Assembly (NCBI GenBank): GCA_044450345.1
Contig: JBIOIY010000002.1
Span: 32,001-96,000, forward strand
Source: Thermodesulfovibrionales bacterium
GTDB lineage: Bacteria > Nitrospirota > Thermodesulfovibrionia > Thermodesulfovibrionales > UBA6898
Direction of reading: 5' to 3'
DNA length: 64,000 bases
Positions 4,084 through 56,013 of this stretch are shown piece after piece. Position 1 is the first letter of the stretch; the number at the start of each line of letters is the position of its first letter. The notes beneath the pieces were generated by a model. The model did no database searches and was not told the origin of the DNA. It worked only from the letters and a program-made list of their open reading frames with translations. The position numbers and the translations under genes were made by a program.

Positions 4084-5199
4084 ATGGATGAAATAAAACA
4101 AAACGAGGGTAATCAGCCCGTCAACAACAGCCAAAGTAGAAAGAAGGCAGCCTTGATTGTCTTTGCCGTCCTTGCGATCATCGGCGCCGTCGTAGTCTTT
4201 TTTTATTTGCAGTATAAGAGCACTCATATCACCACAGACGACGCGTTTATAGACGGGCATATCCATACGATAGCGGCAAAGATAAATGGGACGGTGAAGA
4301 CGGTCTTTGTGGAACATAATCAATTGGTCAAGCAGGGTGACATCCTTGTCGAGGTAGATCCGATTGATTACGATGTTAAGGTAAACGAGGCAGCATCTGC
4401 AGTCAATGCGGAAAAGGCAAAGCTTACCGAAAGGGAGGCGGGGATTGAGGCCTCGAAGAAATTACTGGCAGAGCTTGGGGCAAGACTTGAGGCCGCAAAA
4501 GCGAACCTGCAACTTCAGGAGGCCAACTTTAAGCAGGCCGAGATTGATGTGCGCCGGGCCGAGGGGCTTTTCAAAAAAGATACAATCTCGAAAGAGAGAC
4601 TCGAAAGGGTGCAGACCGCATTCGATGTCTCAAAGGCACAGGTCAAGTCAGCAAGGGAACTCCTGAAGCAGGCCGAGGTTGCGCTCGAAACCCAGCGGGC
4701 CATGGTCAAGCAATCAGAGGCCGCAAGAGCGACGCAATCGGCAACTGTGAAGCAAAAGGAAGCAACCTTAGAAACAGCAAAGCTGAATTCGGGCTATACA
4801 AAGGTTGTTGCGCCGATAGATGGTTATGTGACGAAGAAGTCTGTAGAGGTGGGCAACCAAATACAGGCGGGACAGCCTATCATGGCGGTTGTACCCCTTA
4901 GCGATATTTATTTGACTGCGAATTACAAAGAGACCCAGCTTGAGAAGGTGAGGCCGGGCCAGAAAGTTGATATCAAGGTCGATACGTATCCGGGGAAGAT
5001 ATTTAAAGGTAAGGTCGAAAGCATCATGGCCGGTACCGGCGCGGTGTTTTCCTTGTTCCCACCGGAGAATGCTACGGGGAATTTTGTGAAGGTTGTCCAG
5101 AGGATACCGGTCAAGATTGTGTTTGATAAGGATACCGACCCCGAGCATGTGTTGAGAATGGGGATGTCGGTGGAGCCGACGGTGATTGTGGAAAAATAG
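4084..5199 (+). CDS. emrA: EmrA/HlyD-family multidrug efflux adaptor
   Basis: TDDAFI motif, single TM, FSLFPPENATGNFVKVVQRIPVKI signature; start placed at ATG after GAGG (ORF track starts at 4060). Confidence 0.88.
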   Translation: MDEIKQNEGNQPVNNSQSRKKAALIVFAVLAIIGAVVVFFYLQYKSTHITTDDAFIDGHIHTIAAKINGTVKTVFVEHNQLVKQGDILVEVDPIDYDVKVNEAASAVNAEKAKLTEREAGIEASKKLLAELGARLEAAKANLQLQEANFKQAEIDVRRAEGLFKKDTISKERLERVQTAFDVSKAQVKSARELLKQAEVALETQRAMVKQSEAARATQSATVKQKEATLETAKLNSGYTKVVAPIDGYVTKKSVEVGNQIQAGQPIMAVVPLSDIYLTANYKETQLEKVRPGQKVDIKVDTYPGKIFKGKVESIMAGTGAVFSLFPPENATGNFVKVVQRIPVKIVFDKDTDPEHVLRMGMSVEPTVIVEK

Positions 5200-33642: not shown

Positions 33643-33978
33643 ATGGCCTGGAGTAAAAAGGGCATGAATTCGAGCCTAAAATGGGGCCTTGCCGCAAGTG
33701 TCGCTGTAATTTGCGTGATTATTTTTCTGTTTACACAGGGCTCGCCTGACGGTGCCGAACTTTTTAGAAGTCAGGGGTGTATCAATTGCCACAGTTTTAA
33801 AGGTAAGGGCGCAGAGGTCTGTCCTGACCTTACCGGGGTCACCCGTCGGAGGAGCGACGGCTGGATACGGGACCAGATTAAGAATTCGAAAAAGCACAAT
33901 CCGGACTCGCGGATGCCCGGCTTCGGGCATCTTTCCTACAGAGAAGTCAGCGCGATAATCCGTTATTTGAAGTCATAA
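33643..33978 (+). CDS. Monoheme cytochrome c, membrane-anchored
   Basis: TM helix, CINCH, PDL, distal MP. Confidence 0.85.
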   Translation: MAWSKKGMNSSLKWGLAASVAVICVIIFLFTQGSPDGAELFRSQGCINCHSFKGKGAEVCPDLTGVTRRRSDGWIRDQIKNSKKHNPDSRMPGFGHLSYREVSAIIRYLKS

Positions 33979-34144: not shown

Positions 34145-35314
34145 ATGAAGGATATTTTGGATAGTCTTTCCACAGAGTCAGGAGAATCCCTTGAAAGGCT
34201 CATAAAGGGAGGGGTGTCACGCAGGGATTTCCTTAAATTCTGCACAGGAGTTGCAGTACTGCTGGGACTCCCTGTGGCAATGGGCTCAACGATCGCGGAG
34301 GCTGTGATAAGCTCTAAAAGGCCTCCTGTCCTTTGGCTCTCTGCTCAGGAATGCACCGGCTGTACTGAGAGCCTCTTAAGAACAAACCATCCGACCCTCG
34401 AAAAACTGATCCTCGAACTTATATCCCTTGATTATCACGAGACCCTTAATGCGGGGGCAGGGCATCAGGCCGAGGCTGCGCGTATTAAGTCAATGCAGGA
34501 GAATAAAGGGAAATATATTTTGGTGGTGGACGGTTCCATCCCTGTTAAGGACAATGGAATCTACTGCAAGATCGGCGGAAAAACCGCCCTTTCACTCCTC
34601 GAAGAGATGGGATCCCAGGCAGCGGCGGTCATTGCGATTGGTTCTTGTGCCTCCTGGGGAGGGGTACCTTCTGCAGATCCTAACCCGACCGGAGCAACCC
34701 CTGTTCATGAAATCTTCAAGACCAAGGGCATAAAAACACCGGTCGTAAATATTCCAGGATGTCCTCCCAATGGCTATAATTTTCTTTCCACGGTTTTGTA
34801 CTTCGTGACATTCAAAAAACTTCCGGAATTGGATGATCAGGGCAGGCCCAAGTTTGCCTATGGAAGGATAATACACGAAAACTGCGAACGGCGCCCTCAC
34901 TTCGACGCCGGCAGGTTCGCGGTGGAGTTCGGAGATGAAGGACACAGAAAAGGCTACTGTTTGTACAAACTGGGATGCAAAGGACCTGAGACATATAACA
35001 ACTGTCCCACATTGCTTTTTGGAGATGTGGGGTCCGGTGCGTGGCCTGTGGGGACGGGGCATCCCTGCTTCGGATGTTCCGAAAAAGGGGTCGGGTTTAC
35101 CGTGCCCCTCCATACTCCGTCGAGGCCGCAATATCTTACCCCTCCGGCGTTGTTTACGGAAGTCTACCCCGGTAAAGAAGGTGTTCCGTCGGGAGTCAAG
35201 GCACTGGCTGCCGGCTTTGCGGGAGCAGCGATAGGAGCTGCGGGAGCGGCAATACTTACCGGTCTTGGCAAGAAGGACGAAGAAAAAGAAGACAAAAAAG
35301 ACAAGGAGGGTTAA
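34145..35314 (+). CDS. hybO: [NiFe]-hydrogenase small subunit (Hyd-2/group 1c-like)
   Basis: Tat signal SRRDFLK, ECTGC, GSCASWGG, PGCPP, HENC, CLYKLGCKGP, WPVGTGHPCFGC, C-terminal TM. Confidence 0.95.
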   Translation: MKDILDSLSTESGESLERLIKGGVSRRDFLKFCTGVAVLLGLPVAMGSTIAEAVISSKRPPVLWLSAQECTGCTESLLRTNHPTLEKLILELISLDYHETLNAGAGHQAEAARIKSMQENKGKYILVVDGSIPVKDNGIYCKIGGKTALSLLEEMGSQAAAVIAIGSCASWGGVPSADPNPTGATPVHEIFKTKGIKTPVVNIPGCPPNGYNFLSTVLYFVTFKKLPELDDQGRPKFAYGRIIHENCERRPHFDAGRFAVEFGDEGHRKGYCLYKLGCKGPETYNNCPTLLFGDVGSGAWPVGTGHPCFGCSEKGVGFTVPLHTPSRPQYLTPPALFTEVYPGKEGVPSGVKALAAGFAGAAIGAAGAAILTGLGKKDEEKEDKKDKEG

Positions 35315-35318
35315 GGCC

Positions 35319-36314
35319 ATGAGTATGGAAAGGCGAGACTTCTTGAAGATAGCCGCCGGAAGCGGACTGCTCCTTGCCTCTAAAGTGAACCCCGCACTTG
35401 CCAGCATGCCTACGGAGCTGCCTCCTCAGGCCGTCGGCATTCTTTATGACGCGACGCTCTGCATCGGCTGTAAGTCCTGTATGGTGAATTGCAAGATTTA
35501 CAATAGCGTACCGGGCGGAGCGCTTTATCAGAAAGGCCGCACAATCTCGTATGAAGTGAAGCCTGGTGAGCCTTATTGGGATGCGGCGGAAAATCTTTCA
35601 TCGAAAACGGTCAATGTTATCAAGATCAATAAAAGCGGGACTGGAGTGAACAAGGACAGCGTTGAAAACGGCTTTTCCTTCATAAAACAGCACTGTCTTC
35701 ATTGTATATCTCCGGCCTGCGTATCGGTATGCCCGGTCGGTGCAATCAAAAAAGATCCTGTGAACGGTGTCGTCTCGTATGATCGAGACCGGTGCTTCGG
35801 TTGCCGTTACTGTATGATTGCCTGTCCGTTCAATATTCCGAGATATGAATTTGAGAGCGCGAATCCAAGGATCAGGAAATGCCAGCTGTGCTATCACCGG
35901 TATGCGGAAGGAAAGTATTCCGCATGCTGTGAGTTCTGCCCGACAGGGGCGTCAATTTTCGGAAAGGTCGTAGACCTCAGGAAAGAGGCCCAAAAAAGAC
36001 TTACGCTGAAACCCGGAACAGAGTATGACTTTCCGGTTCAGACAGTCGATTCGACTCAAAAAATGCGACGCCCTGTTTCAAAGTATTTAAACCATGTTTA
36101 CGGAATGACGGAGGTGGGGGGCACCCAGTATCTATTACTTGCCGGGGTGCCGTTTGATTGGCTGGGATTCAACAAGAATATCAAGGACTCTTACCTTCCC
36201 GATCTTACCTGGGCGTACATAGCCAAGATTCCGGCTGTGATCGCAGGGATAATCCTCGCCGGCACAGCGACCTGGGCCGTTACCAGGAACAAGAACAAAG
36301 ATAAGGAGGGATGA
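35319..36314 (+). CDS. hybA: Hydrogenase-2 Fe-S subunit HybA
   Basis: Tat ERRDFLK, YDATLCIGCKSC, CLHCISPACVSVCP, CFGCRYCMIACPF, CCEFCPTGA. Confidence 0.93.
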   Translation: MSMERRDFLKIAAGSGLLLASKVNPALASMPTELPPQAVGILYDATLCIGCKSCMVNCKIYNSVPGGALYQKGRTISYEVKPGEPYWDAAENLSSKTVNVIKINKSGTGVNKDSVENGFSFIKQHCLHCISPACVSVCPVGAIKKDPVNGVVSYDRDRCFGCRYCMIACPFNIPRYEFESANPRIRKCQLCYHRYAEGKYSACCEFCPTGASIFGKVVDLRKEAQKRLTLKPGTEYDFPVQTVDSTQKMRRPVSKYLNHVYGMTEVGGTQYLLLAGVPFDWLGFNKNIKDSYLPDLTWAYIAKIPAVIAGIILAGTATWAVTRNKNKDKEG

Positions 36315-36318
36315 CCAT

Positions 36319-37446
36319 ATGAACCAGCGAGACATTAAACTGATCACTCCTACCACTGTGGTGCTGCTTCTTATCATTGCCGTTGGCGCTGTCGCTGGCC
36401 TGTACCGGGTGTTCTTCGGACTCGGGGCATCAACGCATCTCAATGATGTATGGCCGTGGGGTTTATGGATATCCTTCGATGTCTTGGGCGGCGTTGCTCT
36501 GGCAGCAGGAGGGTTTGTCATTGCAGGAGCGGTTTATATTTTGAACTGGAAGAAATACAAGCCGATTGTAAGGCCGGCGATACTGAACGCATTTTTCGGT
36601 TATCTCCTGGCGGCTACTTCAATAACGCTTGACATTGGGCTTCCCTGGCGCATATATCACCCATTGATTATGTGGCAGATCAACTCTATTATGTTCATTG
36701 TGGCCATCCATGTGGTGCTTTATACGACCACTCTTGCTACAGAGTCCAGTCCGATGTTCTTTGAGAAACTCAAAATGCCGAGGGCCCTGAACTTCATTCA
36801 AAGGATTATGGTAGGCATAGTCTTGTTCGGCGTGCTTCTTTCCACGCTGCACCAGTCATCACTCGGAGCGGTCTTTCTTATCGCTCCGACGAAAGTGTCA
36901 CCCCTTTGGTACAGCAGCAAGCTCCCTTACATGTTTCTTGTCTCTGCAGTAGTGCTGGCGCTTTCAATGGTGAGCTTTGAGACGATTTTGAGCGGAAGGG
37001 TCTTTAAACATAAGCCCCCCATGGACATCCTCCACGGCATGGCAAGGGGTTCTTTGATTGTTATCGGTCTTTATTTGTTCCTGAAAATATGGGACCTGGT
37101 TAGAGGCCCTGGCATAGGACTGGCGTTTAACGGGAGTCTGACTTCCAATATGTACCTCCTTGAAATGATCATAGGGATTATTCTTCCCTTTGTATTACTT
37201 CTGAATAGCGGCGTTAGGACCCGGCTAAACGGCATTTTTTGCGTCAATATACTCGTGATAATCGGAACCGTGCTCAATCGTATGAACGTCGGCATCTTCA
37301 GCATGGTCGAATACAACGGTTTGATGGGGCGTGATTATTTCCCTTCGTGGATGGAAATCGCGGTCACGATGGCGATGGTGGCCTTTGCAGTTTTGGGATT
37401 TAAAGTCTGCGTAAAATACTTGAATGTTCTGAAACTGGAGCACTGA
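36319..37446 (+). CDS. hybB: HybB/NrfD-family membrane anchor
   Basis: LGASTHLNDVWPWGLWISFD, TLHQSSLG, NRMNV, YFPSWMEI. Confidence 0.93.
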   Translation: MNQRDIKLITPTTVVLLLIIAVGAVAGLYRVFFGLGASTHLNDVWPWGLWISFDVLGGVALAAGGFVIAGAVYILNWKKYKPIVRPAILNAFFGYLLAATSITLDIGLPWRIYHPLIMWQINSIMFIVAIHVVLYTTTLATESSPMFFEKLKMPRALNFIQRIMVGIVLFGVLLSTLHQSSLGAVFLIAPTKVSPLWYSSKLPYMFLVSAVVLALSMVSFETILSGRVFKHKPPMDILHGMARGSLIVIGLYLFLKIWDLVRGPGIGLAFNGSLTSNMYLLEMIIGIILPFVLLLNSGVRTRLNGIFCVNILVIIGTVLNRMNVGIFSMVEYNGLMGRDYFPSWMEIAVTMAMVAFAVLGFKVCVKYLNVLKLEH

Positions 37447-37495
37447 CTATGCGTATGAACTATAGCAGGAAAATATATTTCAGGAGGTGGTCGAC

Positions 37496-39196
37496 ATGGC
37501 AAAAAGGATAACAGTTGATCCCGTAACAAGAATAGAGGGACATCTGAGGATAGACTGCGAAGTTGATGGCGGCAAAGTCACAAATGCCTGGTCCTCCGGG
37601 CAGATGTGGCGAGGGATAGAGGTTATCCTCAAGGGACGCGATCCGCGCGATGCATGGTTATTCACACAGCGCTTCTGCGGCGTCTGAACGTCGGTCCACG
37701 CACTGGCTTCAGTGCGTTCGGTAGAAAACGCCCTGGGGATGGAGATCCCTGTGAATGCGCAATATATCAGGAACATGATTATGGGCGCTCACGCAACACA
37801 TGACCATATCGTCCATTTTTATCATCTTGCCGCTCTCGACTGGGTAGATATCGTCTCAGCCCTTAAGGCCGATGCAAGAGCGGTTTCGAACCTGGGCCAG
37901 AAGCTTTCTCCATGGACGGGGAACAGTTACGCCGAGGTCAAGGCATCTCAGGACAGGCTGAAGACTTTTGTGGGTTCAGGTCAGCTCGGTGTGTATGGAA
38001 GCGGCTATTGGGGCCATCCTGCAATGAAGCTTGCGCCCGAGGTGAACATGCTTGCGGCCCATCATTATCTTCAGGCGCTTGAGTACCAAAGGGAGATCAA
38101 TAAGGTCGTCGGCATTCTCGGCTCGAAGACGCCGCATATACAGAACGTGGCCGTAGGAGGAGTTTCCAATGCCATCAATCTGGACAGCCCTTCGACCCTC
38201 AACATGGAAAGGCTGTACTATATCAAGACGCTGATTGATAAGGTCGGTGACTTTGTTGAAAATGTGCTGCTCGTGGACACTGCCGCAGTCGCTGCGTTTT
38301 ATGCGGAGTGGACAAAGTACGGCTCTGGCGTGATGAATTACCTTTCGGTTCCAGATATGCCAATGGACACTAAGGGTACGACCTTTGCGCTTCCAGGCGG
38401 ATACATCCCCGGTGGAGATGTGGGTAAATTCCAGGCGATAAAGAGTTATCAGGACCCGTTCTTCCGCGATAATGTCAAGGAGAGCATCAAACATTCCTGG
38501 TACGACGGCGACTGGGACCGCCACCCGTACGAGGAAGATACGCTTCCGAAATATACCGACTTCCAGGACAAAGGAAAATATTCATGGGTTAAGTCGCCGA
38601 CTTTCAAGGGTAAACCGGCACAGGTGGGGCCGTTGGCCAATGTTCTCTGTATGTTTGCAGCGGGCCACGAGCCGACAAAAAAGTACGCCACGAAGATGCT
38701 TGATACTATAAGCGCCCTGGCCGGTACTAAAGTCGGGATTGCAGCGCTCCACTCGACAATCGGCAGGATCGGTGCCAGGTCAATCAGGTGTGCGGTACTC
38801 TACGATACCCTAAAATCGCAGTGGCAGGCGCTCGTAGAGAATATCTCGAAGGGAGATGTCAAGACCTTCAACCACCCGACTTTCCCAGCGGGCGAACAGA
38901 GGGGTTATGGTTTTCACGAGGCCCCAAGGGGCGCTCTCTCTCATTGGATCGTCATTAAGGACGGGGCGATAAAGAATTATCAGGCCGTAGTGCCTTCGAC
39001 ATGGAACGCCGGCCCCAGGAACAGCGAAGATGCATTAGGGCCTTATGAGGCTTCCCTTATCGGAAACCCCGTGATAGACGCTGAAAAGCCTCTCGAGGTA
39101 TTGCGGACCGTGCATTCGTTTGACCCCTGTCTTGCATGCGCCATACATATGGTCGACAAGACTAATAATGAAATCGTGAAGGTCAAGGCGGTCTGA
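37496..39196 (+). CDS. hybC: [NiFe]-hydrogenase large subunit (HybC-like), 566 aa, with in-frame TGA at codon 64 (probable selenocysteine)
   Basis: ORFs 37487-37687 and 37712-39196 share one frame and join through TGA 37685-37687: [10 protein letters not shown]...[14 protein letters not shown]...HEAPRG...[11 protein letters not shown] plus 15-aa tail. Confidence 0.9.
37698..37717 (+). promoter_or_regulatory. Putative bacterial SECIS element
   Basis: acgcactg-gctt-cagtgcgt perfect 8-bp stem, 10 nt after TGA; loop starts with G, 18 nt from UGA. Confidence 0.7.
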
Positions 39197-39203
39197 TAAG
39201 AGC

Positions 39204-39722
39204 GTGAATGTCCTTGTACTCGGGATAGGCAATGTCCTTATGATGGACGACAGCGTCGGAGTGCGTGCTATCGAGGAGCTCGAGAAGAGATACTGCTTCC
39301 CGCAGGGCGTGGAGCTTCTCGACGGCGGTACTTCGGGCATCGAACTTCTCTCGTATATAGGCGACCGCGATCATTTGATCATAATTGACGCGCTGAAATC
39401 GGGACTTCCTCCTGGGACGGTCGTGAAAGTGGAAGGCGAAGATGTTCCCGCAAGGTTCATGACGAGAATATCGCCGCACCAGCTAGGTCTGTCCGATGTA
39501 CTTGCGGCAGCCACAATTTCCGGCCAGCTCCCGAGAAATTTGGTGCTTTTCGGGGTCGAACCCAAAACAGTCAGGCTCGGCCTTGGCCTCTCAAATGAGG
39601 TCAGGGCGAGCCTTGACAAGTTGGTGAGCACGGTGATTGAAGAACTCGGACGCATCGGATGTGCGGTGGAACCTGCTGAGATCGTGTCAACCAGGAGTAC
39701 ACTATGGGAGGCTCTTGGGTAA
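39204..39722 (+). CDS. hybD: Hydrogenase maturation endopeptidase
   Basis: LGIGNVLMMDDSVG, DGGTSG, IIDA, SPHQLG. Confidence 0.95.
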   Translation: MNVLVLGIGNVLMMDDSVGVRAIEELEKRYCFPQGVELLDGGTSGIELLSYIGDRDHLIIIDALKSGLPPGTVVKVEGEDVPARFMTRISPHQLGLSDVLAAATISGQLPRNLVLFGVEPKTVRLGLGLSNEVRASLDKLVSTVIEELGRIGCAVEPAEIVSTRSTLWEALG

Positions 39723-39921
39723 TGATATATAGTGTCTCATTGTCGTTAGAGTCTAACCTGCCGGTCACTGCCTAATGTATTCCTGCCTCTAAAAAAAAGG
39801 CCGGGCATCTTCTTCGTACCGAAGGTTCTGATAGATACAATAACCATCATTTCCGGCAAAGCACGTCGACAAACATTATTACCGGCGTGATTTTTCGGCG
39901 GCAATCGCGATATAATAGAAT

Positions 39922-40608
39922 ATGAGAATTTTGTTGGTAGAAGACGAGCAGAATGTGGCCTCTTTTCTGAAGAAGGGACTCGAAGAGGAATTTTATACAG
40001 TAGATGTTGCAGAGGATGGGGGAGACGGTTTTGCCATGGCTACTTCCAAGGAATATGACTGCATCATTTTGGACGTAATGCTGCCCGAGATCAGCGGTAT
40101 CGAGATATGCAGGAAATTGAGAAGCTCGAACGTAAAAACGCCGATACTCATGCTCACGGCCCTCGATTCCGTGGGCAGCAAGGTCGAAGGACTTGAAAGC
40201 GGCGCCGACGATTATCTTACAAAACCATTCGCCTTTTCAGAGCTCCTTGCGCGGATAAGGGCATTGTTGAGGAGAGCACCGGATTCGCTGAGCGAGCTTA
40301 CACTGAACGATTTGCGCATGGATCTTTTGTCTAGGAGAGTTTTTAGAGGTGAACAGGAGATCATTCTCACGCAGAAGAGCTTTGCAATCCTCGAATATTT
40401 TTTAAGAAACAAGGGGAGGGTGTTGTCCAGAACACAGATTATTGAGAACATCTGGGGATATAATTTTGATCCGAATACCAACGTAGTGGACGTACATATA
40501 AAGTTTCTGAGAGAAAAAATAGACAAGGAATTCAATAAGAAATTGATTCATACGGTCAGGGGATCGGGGTATGTACTGAAGGCCGAAGATGATAGTCAGG
40601 ACCTTTAG
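39922..40608 (+). CDS. OmpR-family response regulator (CusR/CzcR-like)
   Basis: LVEDE, LDVMLP, GADDYLTKPF, TNVVDVHI, HTVRGSGY. Confidence 0.95.
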   Translation: MRILLVEDEQNVASFLKKGLEEEFYTVDVAEDGGDGFAMATSKEYDCIILDVMLPEISGIEICRKLRSSNVKTPILMLTALDSVGSKVEGLESGADDYLTKPFAFSELLARIRALLRRAPDSLSELTLNDLRMDLLSRRVFRGEQEIILTQKSFAILEYFLRNKGRVLSRTQIIENIWGYNFDPNTNVVDVHIKFLREKIDKEFNKKLIHTVRGSGYVLKAEDDSQDL

Positions 40609-41959
40609 GTTAAGGCTGACCATAATCTACACGCTCGTAGTTGCGGGAATACTTTCCGTGTTTGCGACTGCGATTTACTTTCAATACAGGCACAGCTTGT
40701 CGAAAGAGATTGATAGCTACCTGATTAAGGAAGCAAACGAGGAGATCCTCGTCGAGAGCAACCCTAAACTCCCCCCTAAAAACCGCCAGGTCATAAAGAG
40801 GTTCGGTGACGAGTTCTTTGAGGTCATCGACAACAAAGGGCAGGTACTCATTACGTCGCTGAGCGCAGAGAATCAGCGCTGGCCGCTCGACAGCGAAACG
40901 CTGCTGAAAGCATTCAAGGGGGTTCCCCAGTTCAGCACCGTTTATTTCAGAGGTGCGAATTACAGGATCCTTTACTTTCCGATCAACGCGGAAAAGATAT
41001 TGAGGATAGTCTTGTCCCTGGGAGAGATCGAGGGAAGCATCAGAAGCCTGAGGAATCTCTTTCTCCTCTCTCTCCCGTTTGTCGTGTCTATGTCCTTCGC
41101 CGCCAGTTGGTTTCTTTCCGGCAAGGCCCTGTCGCCTATTATAAAAATCAGCTCGCTTGCGAGTCAGGTAAGAGAGGGAAGGCTGGTCAAGAGGATTGAA
41201 ATGGAGACAAAAGGTAAAGAAATTCAGGACCTGGTGGTCATCTTCAACGAGATGCTCGACGGCATCCAGCACTCTGTCGAGTCGCAAAAGCGATTCACCG
41301 CGGCGGTTTCGCACGAGGTGAGATCTCCCCTTACCTCCTTAAGGGGGAACATCGAAGTAGCATTAAGGAAGAAAAGGACCCCGGAGGAGTATGAGGACAT
41401 CTTAAATACAAACCTTTCCGATATTATAAGACTTTCAAGAATTACGGATAACCTCCTTTTCTTTACCAAGGCCGATAATAATATCCTCGAATTGAGGAAG
41501 CAGTGGTTTGAGGTCTCACATCTACTGCAAAATATTGTTGAGCGCCTAAAATACAGGGCTTCAGCTGCGGGGATCACAATCTCTGAGTCTTATCAGGACG
41601 GGATCGAGATGCGCGGCGATCTTGATCTCCTCGAACAGGCATTTTCCAATATCGTCGAGAACGCAATCAATTATACTCCTTCCGGAGGGATGATATCGGT
41701 GACTTCGAATAGAGAAGATGATAAGATCATCATTTCGATCAGCGATACGGGGATTGGAATCCCTGAAGACGAAATACCCCACTTATTTGAAAGGTTTTAC
41801 AGGGTCAATAAGGAGCGTTCGAGAAAGTCAGGGGGGACGGGACTCGGTCTCTCTATAACAGAGTGGGTCCTCAACGCCCATGACGGAAAGATTGAGGTAA
41901 AGAGTACCCTGGGGGCGGGCAGCGAGTTCATTACCTCATTCCCGGTCTCTAAGGATTAA
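40589..41959 (+). CDS. HAMP sensor histidine kinase (CusS-like)
   Basis: SHEVRSPLT, NIVENAINY, DTGIGIP, FERFYR, GGTGLGL. Confidence 0.95.
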   Translation: MIVRTFRLRLTIIYTLVVAGILSVFATAIYFQYRHSLSKEIDSYLIKEANEEILVESNPKLPPKNRQVIKRFGDEFFEVIDNKGQVLITSLSAENQRWPLDSETLLKAFKGVPQFSTVYFRGANYRILYFPINAEKILRIVLSLGEIEGSIRSLRNLFLLSLPFVVSMSFAASWFLSGKALSPIIKISSLASQVREGRLVKRIEMETKGKEIQDLVVIFNEMLDGIQHSVESQKRFTAAVSHEVRSPLTSLRGNIEVALRKKRTPEEYEDILNTNLSDIIRLSRITDNLLFFTKADNNILELRKQWFEVSHLLQNIVERLKYRASAAGITISESYQDGIEMRGDLDLLEQAFSNIVENAINYTPSGGMISVTSNREDDKIIISISDTGIGIPEDEIPHLFERFYRVNKERSRKSGGTGLGLSITEWVLNAHDGKIEVKSTLGAGSEFITSFPVSKD

Positions 41960-55938: not shown

Positions 55939-56013
55939 TGGAGCGGGCGACGGGATTCGAACCCGCGACTTTCAGCTTGGGAAGCTAACACTCTACCACT
56001 GAGTTACGCCCGC
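55939..56013 (-). tRNA. tRNA-Gly (anticodon CCC), CCA encoded
   Basis: GCGGGCG acceptor stem, D arm CTCAGTGGTAGAG, anticodon loop TTCCCAA, GGTTCGAATCC, 3' TCCA. Confidence 0.97.

Follow-up and report, generated by a model that had tools for sequence, protein, structure and literature searches.

The window analyzed here is a stretch of 64,000 nucleotides from a metagenome-assembled genome (MAG) of a Thermodesulfovibrionales bacterium (phylum Nitrospirota). Five genes lie on its forward strand in the order hybO-hybA-hybB-hybC-hybD at 34145–39722 (Table 1), and their predicted products resemble the subunits and the maturation protease of hydrogenase 2 (Hyd-2) of Escherichia coli. The fourth gene, for the large subunit, is interrupted by one UGA codon at the position of a metal-binding cysteine (Cys). 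An earlier note on this DNA had proposed that the UGA is read as selenocysteine (Sec) at a ligand that bridges nickel (Ni) and iron (Fe), and the present analysis bears on that proposal.

The large subunit gene and conservation of its UGA codon

The codons cgc ttc tgc ggc gtc tga acg occupy positions 37670–37690. Translation of the frame with TGA read as U gave 566 residues and a terminal TGA, directly followed by TAA; the sole internal codon without a standard amino acid was U64, in the sequence RFCGVUTSVH. This sequence is the N-terminal RxCGxCxxxH motif with UGA in place of the second Cys codon, and the earlier note had therefore located the only interruption correctly, on the second Cys of the RxCGxC motif that it called L1. 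It was also right about the C-terminal motif, DPCxxCxxH, which is intact and reads D543-P-C545-L-A-C548-A-I-H551 with ordinary codons for both cysteines (tgt at 39128–39130 and tgc at 39137–39139). With the proposed Sec codon in place of the second Cys of the N-terminal CxxC, and with the three remaining ligands all Cys, the gene belongs to the kind designated CXXU. As had been expected of gene callers, translation table 11 breaks the gene into two open reading frames (ORFs), 37487–37687 (66 amino acids) and 37712–39196 (494 amino acids, GTG start).

Table 1 Features of the hydrogenase locus in the window
Feature	Position	Strand	Basis
hybC-like [NiFe] hydrogenase large subunit, 566 codons plus stop, one UGA read through	37496..39196	+	NF007778 and 6en9_L matches
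UGA codon 64, proposed selenocysteine, second Cys of RxCGxC	37685..37687	+	aligns with HybC Cys64
C-terminal Ni-binding motif DPCLACAIH, ordinary Cys codons	39122..39148	+	translation
Proposed bacterial SECIS hairpin	37696..37721	+	fold, pairing across clade, synonymous-site constraint
hybO-like small subunit with Tat signal	34145..35314	+	TIGR00391 hydA 435.8 bits (cut-off 179.5); TIGR01409 Tat 21.8 bits (cut-off 16.7)
hybA-like Fe-S (ferredoxin-type) subunit	35265..36314	+	NF008134 HybA 355.7 bits (cut-off 263)
hybB-like integral membrane (NrfD/HmcC-type) quinone-interacting subunit	36319..37446	+	NF008133 281.2 bits; NF045714 HmcC 281.6 bits
hybD-like maturation endopeptidase	39204..39722	+	TIGR00140 hupD 155.3 bits (cut-off 151.8); TIGR00072 156.4 bits (cut-off 47.45)

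Residue 64 of the product aligned with Cys64 in the RICGVC sequence of E. coli HybC (6en9_L; 783.5 bits, query residues 1–565 on chain residues 1–566). The matches to other structures were all weaker than that to HybC: 576.5 bits for A. vinosum (3myr), 524 bits for D. vulgaris MF, and 483 bits for hydrogenase 1 (Hyd-1). The top profile model was NF007778, for the Hyd-2 large subunit, at 875.9 bits (cut-off 969, not reached). The mature-form chain 6ehq_L (552 amino acids) aligned with query residues 1–551, and the 15 residues past H551 are likely an extension cleaved by the HybD-like protease. No second member of PF00374 was found in the window's assembly.

A search of 41 related genomes gave 38 matching sequences. 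Exactly one TGA was present in 13 of them, 12 full-length with 84–100% identity (the window's own included) and one N-terminal fragment; 20 had two TGA codons (about 50% identity), and five had none, two of these being without an N-terminus. A second scan, with one genome per species, gave 80 named loci, 21 with the motif CxxU and 59 with CxxC; the nearest of them (86–90% identity) came from MAGs titled Nitrospirae, Nitrospiraceae or Thermodesulfovibrionales. When all 108 loci holding the N-terminal motif were typed, 60 were CxxC, 33 were CxxU (12 from the relatives search, again with the window's own, plus the 21 named loci) and 15 were UxxU; in each CxxU locus it was the second Cys codon that read TGA. 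The CxxU record titles included Nitrospirota, Desulfobulbia/Desulfobacterales, Desulfobacca, and Rokubacteria. The tally of TGA against Cys at codon 64 that the earlier note had called for thus showed that the TGA is not unique to this genome. In an even sample of the phylum, an orthologue (E ≤ 1e-200) was found in 18 of 201 genomes; 16 of these 18 carry one TGA, whose position was checked in three of the 16.

The frame downstream of the UGA is conserved as protein. Over the 487 codons past the UGA, the ratio of nonsynonymous to synonymous change (dN/dS) was 0.029 against locus L015 (dS 0.74) and 0.018 against locus L016 (dS 1.33); in more distant pairs dS was saturated, and dN did not exceed 0.21. 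With dN/dS at only 0.02–0.03, we conclude that the sequence past the UGA, which table 11 would leave untranslated from the upstream start, is under strong purifying selection; a test for such selection was among the checks that the earlier note had asked for.

The large subunit gene is also spanned by two independent DNA contigs from two studies (X1 record 1 and X2 record 17). Another match (X2 record 18) consists of short pieces only, with a 115-letter replacement at 37554–37667, and was read as a different relative. Two short contigs, from two runs of a single study that are labelled as metatranscriptomes, extend over the UGA and the hairpin described below, at 37577–37770 (X17 record 9, differing from the window by three letters) and 37579–37742 (X18 record 13, differing by two). 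They are compatible with expression of the gene but do not prove it, because DNA can occur in such libraries.

Phylogenies were built with FastTree from 107 sequences and with a quick IQ-TREE run from 53 of these 107. The window's large subunit fell in a CxxU clade of 28 sequences with an SH-like support of 99 in FastTree and an SH-aLRT of 99 in IQ-TREE. Members of this clade come from Nitrospirota, Desulfobulbia/Desulfobacterales and one record titled Rokubacteria, and the clade is nested among Cys-type Hyd-2-like sequences; all 27 main-clade sequences have TGA in the codon-64 column. Because three more small CxxU lineages lie elsewhere in the tree, outside the main clade, at least four changes between Cys and Sec are needed. 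Four such changes were forced by well-supported branches in IQ-TREE, which did not resolve their direction (gain or loss). For each of the smaller CxxU lineages there is a Cys-type sequence as close sister (L072 for L052 and L091 for L121, for instance), which suggests repeated switching between Cys and Sec.

Canonical [NiFeSe] large subunits are distant. The HysA model NF045518 gave 352.6 bits (cut-off 780) and NF033181 gave 469.9 bits (cut-off 600), so neither cut-off was reached. Because of this distance, and with the clade nested as it is among Cys-type Hyd-2-like sequences, the origin of this selenium hydrogenase is independent of the classical one, in agreement with what the earlier note had proposed.

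A proposed SECIS hairpin

Bacterial selenocysteine insertion sequence (SECIS) elements follow a rule of spacing from the UGA and of loop sequence. The hairpin proposed here lies inside the coding sequence. Its core stem of 8 bp (37698–37705 paired with 37710–37717) starts 10 nt past the UGA and is closed by the apical loop GCUU (37706–37709); two outer C-G pairs (37696–97 with 37720–21) lie beyond a 2-nt bulge. A passage of Takano 2026 (PMC13582414) describes a 'conserved guanine in the apical loop' of bacterial SECIS elements. Among the 28 clade members the hairpin was paired in 97.1% of 280 cells.

Synonymous differences were determined in 7-codon windows for 27 main CxxU-clade sequences, with a near-copy (L019) and a truncated sequence (L087) left out. 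Codons 68–74 (+4 to +10 from the UGA) had the lowest synonymous difference of all 435 windows, 0.065 versus a gene mean of 0.548. The trough was absent from the Cys-type controls: 48 Cys-type homologues gave 0.602 at the same place (rank 258 of 343), and the 10 closest Cys-type sister sequences gave 0.554 (rank 299 of 442). The earlier note had made conservation of a hairpin in homologues a test of its proposal, and these results agree with it. The support for the hairpin is invariance, not covariation.

The other CxxU lineages (L083/L110, L052 and L121; at 4190–4240 or 714–764 of their loci) have different hairpins at about the same distance from the UGA. Their stems are of 6–8 bp, and three of the four have G-containing 3-nt loops (GGU or GGC), L121 being less clear. 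This pattern fits separate solutions to the same requirement.

Folding energy was rejected as evidence for a SECIS element. It does not discriminate, since Cys-type homologues fold equally well or better. A SECIS-capable structure may pre-exist in the Cys forms or linger on in them; Takano 2026 (PMC13582414) contains a description of this for Group 4 hydrogenases.

Selenocysteine machinery and alternative readings of the UGA

The window's assembly, of 86 contigs, is 91% complete. Its genes for Sec synthesis and insertion (selA, selB, selC and selD) were all found above curated cut-offs, so the Sec machinery for which the earlier note had wanted the genome checked is present. selA (608.7 bits) and selB (382.4 bits) lie side by side, and neither has an in-frame TGA; selD (357.8 bits; C28:7518-8441) has one. 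The selC product, tRNA-Sec, scored 70.5 bits (cut-off 47), and was called 'SeC' with anticodon tca by aragorn; of the 30 tRNAs detected by that program, no other has a UCA anticodon. The Rfam matches to tRNA-Sec below the cut-off coincided with ordinary tRNAs (Leu, Trp, Ser, Tyr and Gly) wherever aragorn made a call at the same place. The genome has three FdhA-like genes with one TGA each (C2:185974-189135, C38:23028-26198 and C26:23062-25128). Like selD, these are selenoprotein genes of the ordinary sort, and together they show that Sec is in routine use in this organism. The maturation genes hypF (760.4 bits, no in-frame TGA) and hypD (471.7 bits) are both kept; the hypD match (C1:23322-24386) holds one TAA and probably runs over a gene boundary.

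From the sequence evidence we conclude, with a probability of about 0.88, that this Thermodesulfovibrionales-like Nitrospirota genome encodes an uptake hydrogenase of the Hyd-2 type (HybOABCD) in which SelB and a SECIS element direct Sec to the ligand bridging Ni and Fe, and that it arose independently of the canonical C-terminal [NiFeSe] enzymes. The hairpin in the coding mRNA would recruit SelB carrying Sec-tRNA(Sec), and UGA64 would be decoded as Sec, with insertion of selenium at this codon. After insertion of Ni and Fe by the Hyp proteins, HybD would trim the C-terminal 15 residues. In the D. gigas structure, the equivalent of residue 64 bridges Ni and Fe. Homology with solved [NiFe] hydrogenases predicts the same for residue 64 here, and Takano 2026 states it for the CXXU motif. 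In the mature enzyme, Cys61 and Cys545 would then be terminal Ni ligands, and Ni and Fe would be bridged by Cys548 on one side and by the Sec64 selenolate on the other. By analogy with E. coli Hyd-2, electrons from H2 would pass from the Fe-S clusters of HybO, in a periplasmic HybOC dimer, to HybA, HybB and the quinone pool. Sec64 may also give the enzyme the 'different active-site chemistry' of which the earlier note spoke, or otherwise affect catalysis.

Several observations weigh against this conclusion. Within the main clade there were no pairs with compensatory changes on both sides of the stem, and shuffles were uninformative, the stem being invariant. The folding energy of the hairpin is unremarkable (z = −0.69; 42 of 200 shuffles fold equally well), as is that of a 100-nt fold (z = −0.97), and Cys-type homologues fold similar hairpins at the same place (L088, 4190–4240, z = −2.59; also L113:4190-4240). 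No Rfam family fell on the hairpin: at gathering thresholds the whole window gave only a tRNA at 55942–56013, and a permissive scan of 37600–37800 gave two chance-level matches (E 1.2 and 2.1). The NCBIfam equivalog cut-offs for HybC, HybO, HybB, and HybD (NF007777) were not reached, and the term Hyd-2-type therefore rests on the best match and the operon order. Protein-level evidence for selenium at the bridging site of a natural enzyme was looked for and not found in the open-access papers searched. No difference at 37685–37687 was seen among the difference rows listed (40 of 149), and all of the matches in other runs are contigs; for these reasons they indicate presence of the stretch in other runs but are weak beside the conservation across assemblies. 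Finally, a completeness of 91% and 30 tRNAs leave room for a second UGA-reading tRNA, such as tRNA-ReC.

The last point bears on the rival that deserves most attention, in which the UGA is recoded as Cys or another standard residue, either by a tRNA-ReC-type Cys-tRNA acting through SelB or by near-cognate read-through, and the product is an all-Cys enzyme gated by recoding. A passage of Takano 2026 (PMC13582414) states that genomes with tRNA-ReC may read UGA as Cys and calls this a limitation of all in-silico work, and such a tRNA could be missing from this assembly. However, the single UCA-anticodon tRNA that was found is a typical tRNA-Sec by its score, and both selA and selD, which Sec requires but Cys does not, are intact. 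Keeping the UGA and the hairpin over at least 28 sampled lineages would be costly and without obvious benefit to an all-Cys enzyme, with TGC one mutation away. We therefore consider recoding to a standard residue improbable.

We give still less weight to the idea that the TGA is plain nonsense, in a pseudogene or between two separate fragments (63 amino acids, and 494 amino acids from the GTG at 37712). The table 11 frame is indeed broken exactly at the TGA, and the GTG-started ORF comes next; but 33 loci from several phyla share the TGA at this codon, the downstream dN/dS is that of a constrained protein (0.02–0.03), and the 566 codons contain no other stops or frameshifts. The fragment from 37712 would be without both N-terminal Ni ligands. 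Moreover, although no other large subunit of this family was found in the assembly, it keeps the hyp genes and hybOABD intact. An error of sequencing or assembly, or a genome in which TGA is a sense codon throughout (code 4 or 25), is the least probable explanation and close to negligible. It suggests itself only a priori, as it would for any draft MAG, whereas the TGA is common to independent assemblies, contigs of other runs span the site, and the gene itself ends in TGA followed by TAA. A genome-wide sense codon is ruled out because selA, selB and hypF have no TGA while the FdhA-like genes carry one each; exactly one is found only in members of known selenoprotein families (SelD, FdhA and the large subunit).

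The operon, related enzymes and significance

The best reading of the operon from its sequence is a periplasmic, membrane-anchored Hyd-2-type (HybOABCD) uptake [NiFe] hydrogenase, which is part of the conclusion drawn above. Profile matches and gene order agree with the statement in the earlier note that hybO, hybA, hybB and hybD are all intact. The best equivalog for the small subunit was the Hyd-2 model NF007779 (480.2 bits, below the cut-off of 659). The start codon of the hybA-like gene is uncertain, the TTG at 35265 overlapping the end of hybO. Both models matched by the hybB-like product scored below their cut-offs (450 for NF008133 and 550 for NF045714), and the similarity is at the family level only. 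Upstream of hybO, an ORF at 33643–33978 resembles a small SoxX-like c-type cytochrome (TIGR04485, 46.9 bits; cut-off 61 not reached), and directly downstream of hybD is a CopR/CopS-like two-component pair at 39922–41959 (TIGR01387, 280.1 bits versus a cut-off of 279.2). A regulatory link of either to the hydrogenase would be hypothetical.

The relatives have a second Group 1 uptake hydrogenase, with the motif RIUGVU, TGA at both N-terminal Cys codons and an ordinary C-terminus, DPCMACAVH. The UxxU motif was checked in 15 loci (L029–L043) of the 20 sequences with two TGA codons in the relatives search. Its operon encodes a Tat small subunit, the large subunit, a b-type cytochrome (TIGR02125, 160.1 bits) and a HupD protease, as at L124:7898-11556 (genome G003) and L125:5791-9761 (genome G029). 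The UxxU clade is monophyletic on a long branch in the FastTree phylogeny and has its own synonymous-constraint trough past the UGA codons (0.19 versus 0.559, the third lowest of 448 windows). In G003, a genome of the same genus, the UxxU operon directly follows hybD; in the window that place is taken by a spacer of only 200 nt (39722–39922), and a UxxU hydrogenase was looked for and not found in the window's own assembly. Among the open-access papers searched we found none on a UXXU Group 1 enzyme, and in print the motif appears only for Group 4.

Hyd-2 of E. coli (HybOABC with HybD), called group 1c in a passage of Evans 2021 (PMC8020662), is a close characterized counterpart in architecture. 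The large subunits match over their full length with the same numbering (Cys61 and Cys64 on C61 and U64), the order hybO-hybA-hybB-hybC-hybD is the same, and both systems have a Tat small subunit and an extension after DPCxxCxxH. The difference is at residue 64, which is encoded by TGC in E. coli and by UGA with a downstream hairpin here, and in the host, a Nitrospirota anaerobe rather than an enterobacterium.

The canonical [NiFeSe] enzymes (HysAB, group 1a, of Desulfovibrio vulgaris Hildenborough and Desulfomicrobium baculatum; PDB 2wpn and 1cc1) are likewise periplasmic Group 1 hydrogenases with one Sec among the four metal ligands and with SelB and SECIS, the Sec being a prediction in our case. 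In contrast to the enzyme described here, they have Sec as the first Cys of the C-terminal DPUxxC, a terminal Ni ligand, where the window has a TGT codon and the proposed Sec is in the N-terminal motif. Their sequences are distant (280–290 bits, over query residues 177–561 only), and their partner is a soluble cytochrome c3 instead of HybA and HybB.

Hydrogenases with Sec in the N-terminal motif have been predicted before, and the earlier note's statement that it knew of no natural example cannot be maintained. Zhang and Gladyshev (2007, PMC1976440) mention a new CxxU Sec in a hydrogenase alpha subunit, 'FrhA'. According to Takano 2026 (PMC13582414), a list in Baltazar et al. (2011) already contained three sequences, two of Group 1 and one of Group 3, whose N-terminal CXXU was predicted to bridge Ni and Fe, and Takano et al. 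(2026) themselves describe CXXU, UXXC and UXXU variants of Group 4 in silico. Evans et al. (2021, PMC8020662) refer in passing to 'purported examples' of a substituted bridging Cys, and Zecchin 2018 (PMC5812927), in a passage that gives no Sec position, annotates a membrane-bound '[NiFeSe] hydrogenase (HysLS)' in a related Nitrospirae MAG. The predicted CXXU sequences resemble ours in the position of Sec, in the kind of evidence (UGA read-through, sel genes, and a SECIS with an apical G) and in repeated Cys/Sec switches within clades. They differ in that the enzyme here is a Hyd-2-type Group 1 hydrogenase with HybA and HybB. The breadth found here (a clade of 28 sequences from at least three phyla, and 16 of 18 orthologues in the phylum sample) exceeds the two Group 1 sequences of Baltazar. 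What stands of the earlier note is its central proposal, a Hyd-2-like, HybA/HybB-linked enzyme with Sec at the bridging Cys, which conservation, hairpin, machinery and selection together make very probable; its suggestion that no natural example was known does not.

An engineered enzyme comes close to the predicted active site. The C79U variant of E. coli Hyd-1 is active, with 13% of native H2 oxidation, the best of four Cys-to-Sec variants according to Evans 2021 (PMC8020662). Its Sec is at the equivalent second N-terminal Cys of a Group 1 enzyme; unlike the Sec proposed here, it is artificial, inserted by a UAG/EF-Tu-driven system into an O2-tolerant group 1d scaffold whose evolution involved no selenium at that site. 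Because this variant keeps 13% activity, a bridging selenolate is compatible with catalysis. A description of a purified natural hydrogenase with N-terminal Sec was not found in the open-access papers searched.

The CXXU kind of hydrogenase is thus known from sequence prediction and is biochemically uncharacterized, and the large subunit described here is a further member of it. New in the present results are that CxxU is the usual form of the Hyd-2-type enzyme in the phylum sample and that the SECIS element has a clean signature at synonymous sites. We suggest tentatively, at somewhat less than even odds, that in Nitrospirota (and in some Desulfobulbia and Rokubacteria) the Hyd-2-type enzyme normally takes the selenium form and that this form, together with the UxxU Group 1 enzyme of the same order, reflects a lineage that systematically places selenium in the N-terminal motif. 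If this is true, the UxxU enzyme would have one terminal and one bridging selenolate, and a Ni-(mu-Se)-Fe core would confer some selective advantage, for instance in redox tuning, in resilience to sulfide or O2, or in Ni insertion. Such an advantage would differ from the role in proton relay and O2 protection ascribed to the canonical C-terminal Sec.

To our knowledge, what has been learned of the biochemistry and structure of [NiFeSe] hydrogenases is all from enzymes whose Sec lies in the C-terminal motif and is a terminal Ni ligand. A natural enzyme with a bridging selenolate would be a test of whether the benefits of selenium depend on its position, as the engineered Hyd-1 variants suggest. 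The carrier assemblies and runs have source labels of peat, soil and freshwater metagenomes, and it seems that in a widespread group of anaerobes the Hyd-2-type enzyme usually takes the Sec form. Because gene callers split or drop such genes, H2 oxidation may be recorded by mistake as absent or broken when the metabolism of Thermodesulfovibrionales-like MAGs is reconstructed, and the H2 metabolism of the carriers would hinge on the supply of selenium.

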